This document shows positions 59,553 through 64,000 of a stretch of 64,000 nucleotides of DNA, piece by piece. A program made the position numbers and the translations under genes. The notes below the pieces were generated by a model, which was not told where the DNA came from, did no database searches, and saw only the letters and a program-made list of their open reading frames with translations. This stretch comes from an uncultured delta proteobacterium. Its GTDB lineage: Bacteria > Myxococcota_A > UBA9160 > SMWR01. Position 1 is the first letter of the stretch; each line of letters opens with the position of its first letter. The stretch is from positions 608,001 through 672,000 of the forward strand of contig CAWHTE010000001.1 of assembly GCA_963832165.1 (NCBI GenBank), read 5' to 3'.

Positions 59553-60002
59553 ATGGCCGACCAACCCCGACGCGCACCCCAGGTGATCGTTCCCTACCTC
59601 GCCTATGACGACGCTCCCGCCGCGATCGCGTTCCTATGCGCGGCATTCGGATTCGAGGAGACCTATCGCCTCGAGATGCCCGATGGTCGGATCGGGCACG
59701 CCGAGCTCAGCTACCGCGGCAACGCACTCATGCTCGCGTCGTCGTATCCGGAGCTCGGGTTCGCGAGCCCAGCCAAGCTGCCGAGCGTGCCGAGCCAGGT
59801 GCACATCGACGTCGAGGACGTGGACGCACACTGCGTTGCCGCGCGCGCGGCCGGGGCAACGATCGCCTCCGAGCCGCACGACGCGCCGCACGGCGACCGC
59901 GAGTACCGCGCCGTCGACCCGGAGGGCCACCGCTGGAATTTCTCCACGCGTCTGCGCGAAATGACGCCTGCCGAGATCCGCGCAGCCTACGGGACCGCGT
60001 AG
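59553..60002 (+). CDS. VOC/glyoxalase family protein
   Basis: PYLAYDDAPAAIAFL..AFGF, HAEL, DPEGHRW. Confidence 0.9.
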   Translation: MADQPRRAPQVIVPYLAYDDAPAAIAFLCAAFGFEETYRLEMPDGRIGHAELSYRGNALMLASSYPELGFASPAKLPSVPSQVHIDVEDVDAHCVAARAAGATIASEPHDAPHGDREYRAVDPEGHRWNFSTRLREMTPAEIRAAYGTA

Positions 60003-60004
60003 CG

Positions 60005-60352
60005 ATGGCCGAGGCCGCGCTCGATCGAACGCTCGCTGCGCTCGCGGATCCCACCCGTCGGCGCGTGGTCGAGCTGCTGCGCCGGCAGCCGCGGCGCGCC
60101 GGCGAGCTCGCCGAGGCGTTCGGCGTGAGCCCGCCCGCGATGAGCCGACACCTGCGCGTGTTGCGGACCCGCGGGCTCGTGGAGGAGGAGCGCGAGGACG
60201 GCGATGCGCGCTGCCGCGTCTACCGGCTGCGGCCCGAGCCGTTCCGCGATCTCGCGTCGTGGCTCGCCGAGGTCGAGGCGTTCTGGAGCGATCAGCTCGG
60301 CGCGTTCAAGCGCCACGCCGAGCGCGCGCAGCGCAAGGGCGGCCGCCGTTGA
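60005..60352 (+). CDS. ArsR/SmtB-family regulator
   Basis: ALADPTRRRVVELL, SPPAMSRHLRVL..GLV. Confidence 0.92.
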   Translation: MAEAALDRTLAALADPTRRRVVELLRRQPRRAGELAEAFGVSPPAMSRHLRVLRTRGLVEEEREDGDARCRVYRLRPEPFRDLASWLAEVEAFWSDQLGAFKRHAERAQRKGGRR

Positions 60353-60846
60353 TCGCCGGAGACGCGGTGCTTGTGACGTCGCGCGTGGAGGTCGATCCGG
60401 ACACCGCGTTTCGCGTGTTCACCGACGAGGTCGACGCCTGGTGGCGCGGCGGTCCGCGCTTCCGCTGGTATCCGGAGCGCGGCGGCACGCTGCGCTTCGA
60501 GGCGAAGGAGGGCGGGCGCTTCCTCGAGGAGTACCCGAGCGGCGAGAGCTTCGAGGTCGGCAGGATCCGCGTCTGGGATCCGCCGCGCCGGCTCGTGTTC
60601 GGGTTTCGCGCGCGCAACTTCGCGCCCGGCGAGGACACCGAGGTGGAGGTGCGCTTCGACGCGCACGGTGAGGCCACCGACGTGACGATCGAGCACCGCG
60701 GCTTCGCCGCGCTGCGCGCCGACCACCCGGCGCGCCACGGCATGGATTCCAACGCGTTCACGAACATGATGGGCGTCTTCTGGGCCGACCTGATCACCGC
60801 CGCGCGGCGCCATGTCGCCGCGCGTCGATCGGAGGAGAGGCGATGA
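60349..60846 (+). CDS. SRPBCC (AHSA1-like) domain protein
   Basis: AFRVFT...WW, WDPPRRLVF, TEVEVRF, IEHRGF; TTG start overlapping ArsR stop. Confidence 0.85.
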   Translation: MIAGDAVLVTSRVEVDPDTAFRVFTDEVDAWWRGGPRFRWYPERGGTLRFEAKEGGRFLEEYPSGESFEVGRIRVWDPPRRLVFGFRARNFAPGEDTEVEVRFDAHGEATDVTIEHRGFAALRADHPARHGMDSNAFTNMMGVFWADLITAARRHVAARRSEERR

Positions 60847-61241
60847 GCGACGACAAGGGATTCGATCTCGAAACGACCTATCTCGTGCTGGCCGACGGAC
60901 CCGAAGCGCGCCGCATCGAAGTGGGGCCCGACTTCTGGCAGACGATCGACCAGCGCGGCGATCTCGCAGGCCGGATGGTCGCGATCTTCCGCTACGAGGC
61001 GGACTGGAACAATTGGGAGATGCATCCCGACGGCGACGAGATCGTGATGCTGCTCTCGGGCGCCATCGATCTCGTGCTCGAGGAAGCAGGCGGCGAGCGC
61101 ACCGTGGAGCTGCGCGATCGCAGCACGGTGATCGTCCCGCGCGGCATCTGGCACACGGCGAACGCCCGCGGTCCGAGCGAGGCGCTCCACATCACGCGCG
61201 GTGCCGGCACGAGGCACCGACGGCGCGCTGCGGACCGCTAG
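60843..61241 (+). CDS. Cupin domain protein
   Basis: WEMHPDGDE, VPRGIWHTA. Confidence 0.88.
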   Translation: MSDDKGFDLETTYLVLADGPEARRIEVGPDFWQTIDQRGDLAGRMVAIFRYEADWNNWEMHPDGDEIVMLLSGAIDLVLEEAGGERTVELRDRSTVIVPRGIWHTANARGPSEALHITRGAGTRHRRRAADR

Positions 61242-61308
61242 CGCGTCTCGCGAAAATGGTTACGCGCGCGGAGCGGAACCGCGCGCGCGCTGCTTCGGAA
61301 GCCGGGGC

Positions 61309-61343
61309 GAGAAAGGCCGTGCTCGGCGGGCACGAGCACGGCC
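61309..61343 (-). terminator. Probable intrinsic terminator
   Basis: Perfect 11-bp stem GGCCGTGCTCG / CGAGCACGGCC with 7-nt loop, followed by TTTCT on minus strand. Confidence 0.55.
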
Positions 61344-61453
61344 CCGAAATCAGGTCAGCGCAAAACCCAGCTGAAGAACCAGATCCGCAGGAGCTCGGAT
61401 TCGAGATTGTTGTGCGCGATGGTGCGGCCACCGCGCTCCGCTTTTCCCGTTGA
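61309..61453 (-). ncRNA. Candidate sigma54-dependent small RNA (~140 nt)
   Basis: Lies between a sigma54 motif and a terminator hairpin; several stem-loops; no credible ORF. Confidence 0.45.
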
Positions 61454-61463
61454 TAGAGGCGCA

Positions 61464-61480
61464 AGCATGCCGCGTGCCAA
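61464..61480 (-). promoter_or_regulatory. sigma54 -24/-12 promoter
   Basis: Minus strand TTGGCAC-GCGGC-ATGCT (GG-N10-GC) with AT-rich upstream region. Confidence 0.65.
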
Positions 61481-61646
61481 AAGCTTGGCAGCGCGGATTT
61501 CCTCAATGAGGATGGGCTAGTGCGTCACCTTACGACGATCCAGGCTTCCCTGAACTGAGGAACGAGTGTTCCTCAATCGGGCAGAACGGGATGAAAAAAA
61601 TGGAAACATTTGTATCTCGAACGACAGTTGGGGCTCCGCGCGCCGA

Positions 61647-62039
61647 TCACTCGCGGGGCGACGCGTGCTCGAGCACGCGAGCGCGCTGCGCTCTCGCATC
61701 GCGCAGCGGCTCGCTGCGCAGCGCGTGAACCTCGCGCGCGTCGAAGTGTGGGCTCGGCTCCACACCGGACATTTCGCGCATCACCCAGTTGAGCAGCGCG
61801 GCGAGCCGGGTGTCGTCGAGCGACGACTGCGCGACGCCGGGCACGCGCACGAGATACGCGCGTCCCTCCGCGGTCGCGAGGAACGAGGAGAGCCCCGTGA
61901 GCGGAGGAACGACGTCGGGCACGCCCGCGCCGCCTCCCTGATGGCACCCCGAGCAATGCAGCAGGTAGTCCTCGTCGGGCAGCGGAGCGGCGCCCGCGGC
62001 GGCGGCCGCGCAGAGGACGAGCGCGGCGGCGCGCTTCAT
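61647..62039 (-). CDS. Small monoheme c-type cytochrome
   Basis: Signal peptide, CSGCH heme motif, GRAYLVRVPGV; ATGA overlap with mauA. Confidence 0.85.
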   Translation of the reverse strand: MKRAAALVLCAAAAAGAAPLPDEDYLLHCSGCHQGGGAGVPDVVPPLTGLSSFLATAEGRAYLVRVPGVAQSSLDDTRLAALLNWVMREMSGVEPSPHFDAREVHALRSEPLRDARAQRARVLEHASPRE

Positions 62040-62584
62040 CGCTCCGGCTGCGGCTCGGTGGCCTGGCCGACCACGATCGCTACGGAGCAGTGATACACGA
62101 GCGACTTTGCCGTCGTGCACCAGTTGATGTCGTTGTTGCGGACCCAGTGGTAGTCGGGTCGCTCTCCCTCGTTGCGGTTGCAGCCGCAGCGCCCGCACCA
62201 TCCCTTCCCGCAGCAGTCGTTGTACGAGATGATGTAATCCTTGCCATCGGCCGGATTGCGACAGGTGCCGACCCAGCTGACCGGCGACATCTCGGATCCG
62301 GGCGGGCACGCCGAGGCGGAACCACCGCAGCACGCGCACGCGAAGCCGTCGATCGCGCAGTGCCGCCAGTACTCACAGCTCGTCTGGTCTCCTTCCGGGC
62401 CGGTGATCGGCTCGTCGGGCGTGGGCACGCGCGGGCTGTCCGCCGCGCCGCGCGCGACCGGCAGGAGCGGCACGGCCGCAGCTCCGATCAGCAGTCCACC
62501 CAGCCGCGCGAGGAAGGTGCGGCGTCCCACGCGGCGCGCGAGTCCGCGCACCGCGCGCTCGATCTGCGCGTCGAGGTCGGTCAC
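62036..62584 (-). CDS. mauA: TTQ-dependent amine dehydrogenase light chain
   Basis: Tat motif RRTFL; CEYWRHCAIDG..C.CCGG, SWVGTC, YNDCCG, NDINWC (both TTQ Trp positions). Confidence 0.95.
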   Translation of the reverse strand: MTDLDAQIERAVRGLARRVGRRTFLARLGGLLIGAAAVPLLPVARGAADSPRVPTPDEPITGPEGDQTSCEYWRHCAIDGFACACCGGSASACPPGSEMSPVSWVGTCRNPADGKDYIISYNDCCGKGWCGRCGCNRNEGERPDYHWVRNNDINWCTTAKSLVYHCSVAIVVGQATEPQPER

Positions 62585-63216
62585 GTGGTGCTTCCTCCCG
62601 CGTCGGGTCGCAGCTCACCCGCGCGAAGCGTGCGCGCGAGGTGGGCCTGGATCGTGGGCGCGCCGAGCCGCTCGGCTTCGAACAGGCTCTCGACGTGCTC
62701 GCGCGTGTTCACGAGGCCCTTCGCGCGCACGGTGCCGGCGGCGTCGATCAGCACCGCGTAGGGAAGCTTCGCCACTTCGAAGCGCAGCCCGAGCTCGCGC
62801 GAGAGGACGTAGCTCGCCGGATCGAGGCGCTGCTCGCGCGCGAACGCGGTGTGCTCGGCGAGGTCGCCGTCGCTCGCGTAGACGAGGCGCACGCGATCCT
62901 CACCGGCCACGACGCGTTGCAGGGTCGGCAGCAGGGTCTTGCACATCGGACAGGTCGGCGACCCGAAGAACAAGAGCGTGCTGCGCCCGGCCTCGTCCGC
63001 ACCGCCGATCCGGATCGACGCGCCGGACAACGCGGGCGCGAGCAGCACGGGCGCGGGCTCGCCCGCGGCGGGTCCGCGTGCGATCGCGAGTGCGCCGAGA
63101 GGCGCGAGGCGTTCGTGCAGCACGCCGAGCTGCCGCGCGAGCGCCGCGACGACGCCTGCGAGCACCACCACGAGCAGCCAGAGCAGGGCATTCGAAACGA
63201 GCAGGGCGTCCATCAT
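62581..63216 (-). CDS. mauD: Methylamine dehydrogenase accessory protein MauD
   Basis: LARQLGVLHERLAPLGAL, SPTCPMCK, KLPYAVL, KGLVNTREHVESL. Confidence 0.93.
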   Translation of the reverse strand: MMDALLVSNALLWLLVVVLAGVVAALARQLGVLHERLAPLGALAIARGPAAGEPAPVLLAPALSGASIRIGGADEAGRSTLLFFGSPTCPMCKTLLPTLQRVVAGEDRVRLVYASDGDLAEHTAFAREQRLDPASYVLSRELGLRFEVAKLPYAVLIDAAGTVRAKGLVNTREHVESLFEAERLGAPTIQAHLARTLRAGELRPDAGGSTT

Positions 63217-63737
63217 GCCGACCTCCCGAGGCGCGCCGCGCTGAACGCGAGCGATTGCGCGGCGATCCACACGAACGAGAGCGCGGCCGCGCACGCGGCC
63301 ACCGAGAGCGCATCGATCCAGACCAGCTCGCGGCTCGACACGGGAAGCGCGGCGGGGAGCGCGACCGCTGCGAGCAATGCGTTGCGCAGGAGCAGGCCGT
63401 GCGAGAGCGGTTGCGGGTGTGCGGAGCAGCCGCAGTCGATCTCGCGTCGACCGCGCGCGAGGTTGATCGCGATCGCGCCCGAGTAGAGCGCGAGCAGCGA
63501 CGCGGCGGCGGCGCTCGCGCCGACTGCGCTCGCGGGCCAGAGGAGACCGAGCGCCACGGCGGTTTCGCACGCGGCGAACGCGCACGCGATCGCGGGCACG
63601 AGGGCGCTCGGCACGAGGCGATGCGCTGCGACGGCTTCCGAGAACCCGCGCAGATCGCGCCATTTGTGGAGCGCGGCGGCGGCGAACACGCCCGCCAGCA
63701 CGAGGCGCGCCACCCATGCGGCGATCGGGTCGATCAT
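63213..63737 (-). CDS. mauE: Methylamine utilisation membrane protein MauE
   Basis: AALHK, INLARGRREIDCGC, LLRN; position between mauB and mauD. Confidence 0.9.
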   Translation of the reverse strand: MIDPIAAWVARLVLAGVFAAAALHKWRDLRGFSEAVAAHRLVPSALVPAIACAFAACETAVALGLLWPASAVGASAAAASLLALYSGAIAINLARGRREIDCGCSAHPQPLSHGLLLRNALLAAVALPAALPVSSRELVWIDALSVAACAAALSFVWIAAQSLAFSAARLGRSA

Positions 63738-63738
63738 C

Positions 63739-64000
63739 TCAATGCACTCCCATCGTGGGGCCCGCAATCCCGACCTCGTCGATGTTGCGCAGGTGCTCGC
63801 CCGTGCGCGCGTCGAGCACCACGACCACACCGACCTCGGCGTTGCGCACGAACAGCAGCGGCGCCGCATCCTGGGTCACCAGCAGCGAGTGCGCTCCGTC
63901 GCTCGAGATCCAGCGCTGGAGACTCCGGTGGAACCAGCCGCCCGAGGTGACACCGAGCCGCGGAGCGACGTAGGCGGTCATGAAGCTCGGAAGCGCGAAG
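63739..64000 (-). CDS. mauB: Amine dehydrogenase heavy chain, C-terminal part (truncated by window edge)
   Basis: VTQDAAPLLF...VLDARTGEHLRNI propeller C-terminus; gene order B-E-D-A. Confidence 0.7.
   Translation of the reverse strand, partial: FALPSFMTAYVAPRLGVTSGGWFHRSLQRWISSDGAHSLLVTQDAAPLLFVRNAEVGVVVVLDARTGEHLRNIDEVGIAGPTMGVH

Follow-up and report, generated by a model that had tools for sequence, protein, structure and literature searches.

The window, i.e. the whole stretch of DNA analysed here, comprises 64,000 nt of the source genome G000 (G000:C1:608001-672000), whose assembly is 89% complete, whose GC content is ca 0.70, and whose genes were called with a purpose-built hexamer model. 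We examine a gap of 405 nt between convergent cupin and cytochrome c genes, which contains every feature of the original prediction of a structured small RNA behind a sigma54 promoter. The cytochrome c gene is the last gene of a TTQ amine dehydrogenase operon, and the corresponding cluster (61647-64000, minus strand) encodes the light chain (PF02975), MauE, a thioredoxin-like protein and the cytochrome c. On the other side lies a VOC-ArsR-AHSA1-cupin cassette (59553-61241, plus strand), divergent from a methyltransferase gene. The first three genes of this cassette are kept in five of six congeners and are missing at that place in G004. The features of the locus are as follows.

60843..61241, plus strand: cupin gene (PF07883), convergent, the downstream flank of the element
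61253..61287, minus strand: second hairpin, 9 bp with a U4 tail, from the fold; one RNA contig (X20) ends at 61250
61306..61454, minus strand: candidate small RNA, ca 148 nt to the first terminator, from RNA-library contigs and the G004 homolog; ends predicted
61309..61343, minus strand: 11-bp terminator-like hairpin (stem 61343-61315) with a weak U tail; 11 of 11 pairs kept in G004
61374-61355, minus strand: TCAGC/GCTGA hairpin, from the sequence
61365..61371, minus strand: another invariant block, of 7 nt, unchanged in G004 at 7 of 7 positions
61400-61383, minus strand: ATCCG/CGGAT hairpin, from the sequence
61384..61395, minus strand: invariant 12-nt block with CUCCU (anti-Shine-Dalgarno-like), 12 of 12 identical in G004; candidate seed
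61413-61407, minus strand: ACAACAA linker, from the sequence
61414..61436, minus strand: 5' stem-loop SL1, pair probabilities 0.95-1.0, with 8 of 8 pairs formed by each copy
61355-61468, minus strand: TetR-like stretch, with a frame resembling the TetR C-terminus of another family (L215:860-1615)
61463..61480, minus strand: predicted sigma54 -24/-12 promoter, from the sequence motif; rpoN in the genome; kept in G004
61557..61574, no strand: perfect 7-bp inverted repeat, ca 110 nt upstream of +1, core kept in G004
61600..61623, plus strand: likely 5' stub of a PMT/ArnT-type glycosyltransferase gene, divergent and otherwise deleted, aligning to the gene start in G004
61647..62018, minus strand: cytochrome c gene (PF00034, weak, E 7e-4), the upstream flank of the element

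The promoter motif, the hairpins, the ACAACAA stretch, the 11-bp stem and the convergent flanks are thus all found at their predicted places on the minus strand. That the RNA itself would be read from this strand follows from the promoter and the U tails.

At 61480-61463 the -24/-12 spacing is correct, and both rpoN and activator genes are present in the genome. With the usual spacing between the -24/-12 element and the start of transcription, the predicted +1 falls at ca 61453-61454. A relaxed form of the motif occurs 37 times genome-wide compared to 41 times for a reversed control pattern, and because the control is about as frequent, this count alone is uninformative. The intergenic share, which is 26 of 37 for the motif class and 3 of 41 for the reversed control (Fisher p 5e-9), exceeds chance. 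Among the genes behind such sites are those of an ammonium transporter, a pilin and a sigma factor, besides several for small DUF proteins, and all eight that were scanned had Pfam matches. The site considered here has the lowest upstream GC of all 37 copies (0.50 over 150 nt) and belongs to a set of seven intergenic sites that are followed by a convergent called gene. The AT-rich upstream region of the original prediction is therefore present; for the IHF consensus, no match with fewer than three mismatches was found. In G004, 16 of the 18 promoter columns are identical, compared to only 3 of the 13 adjoining ones.

G000 has 26 PF00158 matches, of which 18 are strong enhancer-binding-protein genes; none lies within the window, and the nearest on the same contig is ca 178 kb away. 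Such a protein may bind the inverted repeat at 61557-61574. Its core occurs five times in the genome, and among the 26 intergenic sigma54 sites it is found within 170 nt at this one only. A reading of the palindrome as a LexA box was dropped, since a recA/lexA-like called neighbour is found at none of 15 intergenic core copies. Two tandem copies of the core lie at G000:C11:3028 and 3043, upstream of a fragmented gene which we take to resemble an error-prone polymerase subunit.

Several other sigma54-type sites deserve mention in their own right. Small-protein genes behind such sites (C1:485478, C1:578580, C3:24047, C3:9686 and C4:427020) encode DUF1328, DUF3309, DUF4142, DUF6496 and cyclase-like proteins, which recall general-stress genes and hint at a sigma54 stress regulon. 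Further intergenic sites with a convergent next gene are found at G000:C2:484987, C7:581830, C7:954244 and C7:1026554, and some of these may precede small genes missed by the gene caller. A second candidate orphan RNA is located at G000:C7:691303 (plus strand) and L125 (G005:C85:1191-1207, minus strand), where a sigma54-type site is followed by ca 200 nt without a called gene; the region is visibly conserved between G000 and G005, and has no Rfam match at gathering level and no credible one at E<=1. A 245-nt intergenic region in G004 (L170:2348-2593, on G004:C10) is 80% identical to its ortholog on G000:C7, with an exact run of 58 nt, and constitutes a candidate structured RNA behind a sigma54-like site in G004, with no credible Rfam match. 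Between a sigma54-type site and a pilin gene there is a conserved leader of ca 120 nt (G000:C3:276534-276680, and L109 in G005), also with no Rfam match at gathering level. Elsewhere, at G000:C2:102245-105563, near-identical short stretches recur at a spacing of ca 813-828 nt, suggesting a tandem repeat in a long gene or an array.

We now turn to the body of the RNA. The GGTG/CACC hairpin of the original prediction (61432-61421) is one register of the longer hairpin SL1 (61436-61414). The fold of the whole 152-nt RNA has a z-score of -1.59 relative to shuffled sequences, 13 of 200 of which fold equally well, and a second z-score reported for the element is -1.1. In the predicted folds of both copies the 5' end pairs with the 3' tail, and in the G004 fold the two invariant blocks are able to pair with each other. 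SL1 and the terminator stem have their pairs kept in G004, where the ATCCG and TCAGC hairpins are preserved in part only, and the fold energy is only modestly better than that of shuffles. Similarly, the stem of the proposed terminator is fully kept, but its U tail is weak, the terminator scan did not call it, and the RNA contigs described below run past it. The hairpin at 61253-61287 is likely a back-up terminator, as judged from its predicted fold; it is absent from G004, where the sequence differs.

The sole BLAST homolog of the element is found on G004:C152, with 70% identity over ca 315 nt (E 3e-25). At E<=1e-5, three of 225 class genomes give a match, namely G000, G004 and, through a TetR gene, G194. 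The element is present in two of the seven genomes of the genus, several of which are incomplete, and was not found in two congeners of 95% and 99% completeness. We consider it to be conserved in one sister species and likely lineage-restricted.

What is kept in G004 is the promoter, the upstream palindrome, the 5' hairpin, the CUCCU block and the terminator stem. The identity is 19/23 in SL1, 26/29 in the terminator and 5/19 in the ACAACAA linker. The linker is the least conserved part, so that a role like that of the CA motifs of CrcZ finds no support. SL1 and the terminator together retain 19 of 19 pairs, two of them through double changes (in a comparison of two sequences only): one U-A to G-C in SL1, and one U-A to C-G in the terminator. 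Paired columns differ in 4 of 38 cases, all within the compensated pairs, and unpaired ones in 45 of 116 (p 0.001), the stems having been chosen from these same sequences. The covariation proposed as a check is thus seen as two compensated pairs, but with two independent sequences it lacks significance, as 144 of 500 shuffles score equally high. It is important to note that the overall identity of 0.70 is no evidence of selection, because of 24 syntenic intergenic regions (median 0.60; 20 of ca 270 G004 contigs) 8 reach it as well, and four-fold sites of the neighbouring genes are 72% identical between the two genomes.

As to the genomic context, the G004 copy is flanked by a divergent glycosyltransferase gene (PF13231) and by a co-directional methyltransferase-acyl-CoA dehydrogenase operon, which begins ca 70 nt past the terminator on the same strand. 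The full glycosyltransferase gene has no match in G000, where the likely stub amounts to eight codons. In G002, on the other hand, the cupin and cytochrome c genes are ca 30 nt apart and the element is absent. Both flanks have thus changed while promoter, body and terminator stayed together, which means that the hairpin does not act only as the terminator of the amine dehydrogenase (mau) operon; this, together with a lack of conservation, had been named as an outcome that would overturn the prediction.

Covariance-model, pattern and synteny searches gave no homologs beyond G004. A first covariance model (R1), in which two helices were mis-registered, was a weak search with matches in 4 of 44 genomes; its match in G058 was rejected as antisense to a coding gene. 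A second model (R2) matched 17 of 151 order genomes at E<=0.01, with scores of 204-208 bits for G000 and G004. The 15 further matches were rejected, as they reach at most 23.5 bits and resemble coding sequence; a loose motif of the promoter type occurs at 1 of 19 loci. A pattern scan of genome contigs returned 40 loci, among which only the G004 contig itself scored; the corresponding metagenome scan gave one locus, identical to G004 across the overlap, and the two loci from the viral scan were rejected because both lack the remaining features. No match was found in plasmid and phage sequences, no further copy beside 27 methyltransferase and 30 glycosyltransferase loci, and no homolog at the sigma54 sites of G001 and G005 (27 of 27 inspected). 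Within 2 kb around the element, Rfam gave six weak matches, none of them on the element; for 231 nt it gave ten sub-threshold matches at E<=10, none credible and RF01812 not among them. The proposed Infernal/Rfam check therefore agrees with an undescribed RNA.

Evidence of expression comes from public soil data. A query of 1,301 nt led to 20 runs, each with a small share, of which two are recorded as RNA, one is guessed to be RNA and 17 are DNA. The contigs of the three RNA runs, from three studies, and of one of the 17 DNA runs were placed on 60600-62300. Each RNA run yielded exactly one long near-identical contig, among six, six and seven pieces placed: X10 at 61293-61435 with 0 differences and a loose end matching on to ca 61442, X13 at 61295-61442 with 5 differences, and X20 at 61250-61436 with 5 differences and one gap. 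The remaining pieces are matches of 18-93 nt in contigs that mostly continue unlike the locus. A discrete piece of RNA from the element is thus present in soil RNA libraries at the contig level, in all three runs, and the lack of a discrete transcript, which was to speak against the prediction, is not what is observed. Assuming uniform placement, the chance of all three contigs covering the pre-specified 61309-61435 is 1.5e-5.

The contigs have a depth of only 3-4 and carry no strand, true ends or level. Their upstream edges lie 11-18 nt inside the predicted +1, and that of X20 (61436) coincides with the 5' start of SL1. Downstream, all three extend 12-56 nt beyond the first hairpin, X20 to just past the second one, which places the 3' end of the RNA somewhere between 61306 and 61253. 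The five listed variant places all fall outside SL1 and the invariant blocks; an X13 variant at 61340 (depth 3.2) breaks one terminator pair. No RNA contig covers 61455-61625, with the promoter, in the three runs, and none of the long near-identical contigs lies on the flanking genes, the cytochrome c gene included, although missing cover does not alone prove silence. In the single DNA run, which was two-thirds read, an exact contig lies elsewhere, at 61527-61677. The small shares in the other 16 DNA runs do not bear on habitat.

The absence of a credible open reading frame, also part of the prediction, stands: all six frames of both copies have coding scores below the 5th percentile of genes. 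The open minus-strand frame across the region spans 37 codons and has its ATG inside the -12 element; in G004 it shifts and lacks a start codon ahead of the terminator. In 15 of 29 residues this frame agrees with the C-terminal part of a G194 TetR protein (DNA E 7e-6), and a TetR C-terminal profile of 29 members, built without G194, places it at the top of 19,560 intergenic segments, with an E of 0.1 and for a family chosen post hoc; the G004 copy is not listed by this profile.

On this basis, 61454-61306 is very probably a stand-alone small non-coding RNA gene. That such a gene comes together with its own sigma54 promoter is probable, and provided that the RNA is real, its transcription from this promoter is highly probable. 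The view of the element as an undescribed regulatory small RNA is supported, sigma54 dependence being predicted from the promoter motif and the regulatory role being presumed.

How does the element compare with known small RNAs? CrcZ has a sigma54-type promoter, and CrcZ and Qrr work through Hfq; AbcR1/2 and 6C, considered below, have promoters of a type other than sigma54. The gammaproteobacterial CrcZ, Qrr, NrsZ and GlmY share with the element a sigma54-type promoter and their own terminator. The element differs from them in that Hfq was not found in the genome, the CA-rich motif is not conserved, and no Rfam family matches. An Hfq-sequestering RNA like CrcZ is not indicated, as there is a single CA-rich motif; nor is a sponge of the CsrB/RsmZ type, as the RNA has only three GGA motifs and CsrA was not found; nor a 6S or Y RNA, as no model matches and no Ro60 was found. 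A 6S RNA was not found anywhere in G000, where the 6S search may be insensitive.

The closest parallel is Pxr of Myxococcus xanthus (RF01812), which is intergenic, has a predicted sigma54 promoter and multiple stem-loops, and acts in a host without Hfq (PMC5568312, PMC5684412, PMC11928866). The element shares these traits and the phylum, no Hfq having been found here either, but it is longer (ca 148 vs 108 nt), has no activator gene nearby whereas Pxr lies downstream of nla19/pxrR, and occurs in two species only while Pxr is conserved across several genera. The RF01812 covariance model has no match at E<=1 in G000, and identity with Pxr is excluded by this model and by synteny. Dv_sRNA2 of Desulfovibrio vulgaris is an expressed orphan small RNA, the target of a response regulator and located downstream of the regulator gene (PMC3333781). 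In outline it parallels the element, a presumably regulator-driven orphan RNA, but it adjoins its regulator gene. Finally, AbcR1/2 of Sinorhizobium and 6C of Mycobacterium have anti-Shine-Dalgarno or C/U-rich seeds, and 6C is reported to work without RNA chaperones (PMC8844928, PMC6486639). The element likewise has an invariant run of a few pyrimidines that could pair with ribosome-binding sites, but differs in having no Rfam match and a candidate seed that is partly paired in the predicted folds. A description of the element itself was not found in the literature searched.

The best reading, by analogy, would be a Pxr-like, chaperone-independent base-pairing RNA that forms a new family of a known kind. 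It would be transcribed from its own sigma54 promoter, presumably by way of a distant activator binding the palindrome at ca -110. The resulting discrete RNA is seen at the contig level, and the 5' hairpin and the terminator hairpin, with the two compensated pairs in their support, would shield its ends. The CUCCU block would then pair with ribosome-binding sites of the GCAGGAG type and repress mRNAs independently of Hfq, CsrA and ProQ; these proteins and Ro60 were not found in the 89%-complete genome. Judged from the sequence, such pairing may be the single most likely mechanism, which we hold only tentatively, with protein binding next. The block is the longest invariant one outside the stems, and the complement of one of its 8-mers occurs near 37 of 4,922 starts, with ca 17 expected from gene interiors, as any anti-Shine-Dalgarno word would do. 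A ribosome-binding site with the complement, that of the DUF1328 gene, is present in both G000 and G004. The target duplex energies are no better than those of six shuffled seeds (best -32.6 vs -29.5 to -34.8), and the two predicted folds disagree on the accessibility of the block.

With the same promoter, the RNA could instead serve a protein as a structured scaffold or decoy, the invariant blocks being protein-binding or tertiary elements. The target signal that does not exceed shuffles, the predicted pairing of 5' end and 3' tail in both copies, the possible pairing of the invariant blocks in G004 and the apparent abundance of the RNA in soil would all fit this option. We nevertheless find it doubtful, as the candidate partners CsrA, Hfq, ProQ and Ro60 were not found in the 89%-complete assembly, the ACAACAA stretch is not conserved, no 6S or other Rfam model matches, and the distribution is too narrow for a housekeeping RNA. 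It is improbable that there is no independent gene at all and that the contigs stem from the terminator of the amine dehydrogenase mRNA or from a stable 3' remnant of its decay. The element does lie downstream of that operon on the same strand, and a hairpin-protected fragment would yield the same contigs, including the edge of X20 at the first base of SL1. However, the promoter is kept in G004 although the upstream gene there is divergent, the operon ends without the element in G002, and the cytochrome c gene has no high-identity RNA contig.

Even less probable is a 5' leader (attenuator or riboswitch) that has been orphaned in G000. The methyltransferase operon of G004 follows the terminator closely and in the same direction, and the contigs pass the terminator; but in five other congeners and in G000 the methyltransferase gene is preceded by the divergent VOC-ArsR cassette, because of which the G004 layout is likely a derived deletion. 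In addition, the next gene in G000 is convergent and no Rfam cis-element matches. About as improbable as the operon fragment is that the element is a short mRNA, or what is left of a TetR-family gene at its 3' end, shared merely through the closeness of the two species. It is suggested by the resemblance to the G194 protein, by the first rank in the profile search and by the least negative coding score of that frame (-0.03). Against it stand the profile E of only 0.1 for a family picked after the match, the unlisted G004 copy, the ATG within the -12 box, and the frame shift and missing start codon in G004; a neutral remnant would also leave the discrete RNA and the compensated stems unexplained. 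We regard as unlikely, too, a combined scenario of a young, abundant soil RNA whose promoter and body arose from a TetR-family 3' end and which now regulates translation without Hfq, CsrA, ProQ or Ro60. In that scenario the -12 box would overlap a Met-Leu codon pair, and the element would have outlasted the loss or replacement of the genes on either side. OxyS is a precedent for the protein-coding origin of a small RNA (PMC8825220).

With the stand-alone small RNA as the preferred reading, the finding adds an expressed, undescribed small RNA to an uncultured lineage of Myxococcota, a phylum for which only Pxr turned up in our literature search. To specialists this will be plausible rather than startling. 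It also means that public metatranscriptomes can reveal the small RNA of an organism that is rare in soil even though they do not show the neighbouring mRNAs. If the RNA pairs with mRNAs, it would be a further instance, of interest for myxobacteria, of small RNA action without a known chaperone.
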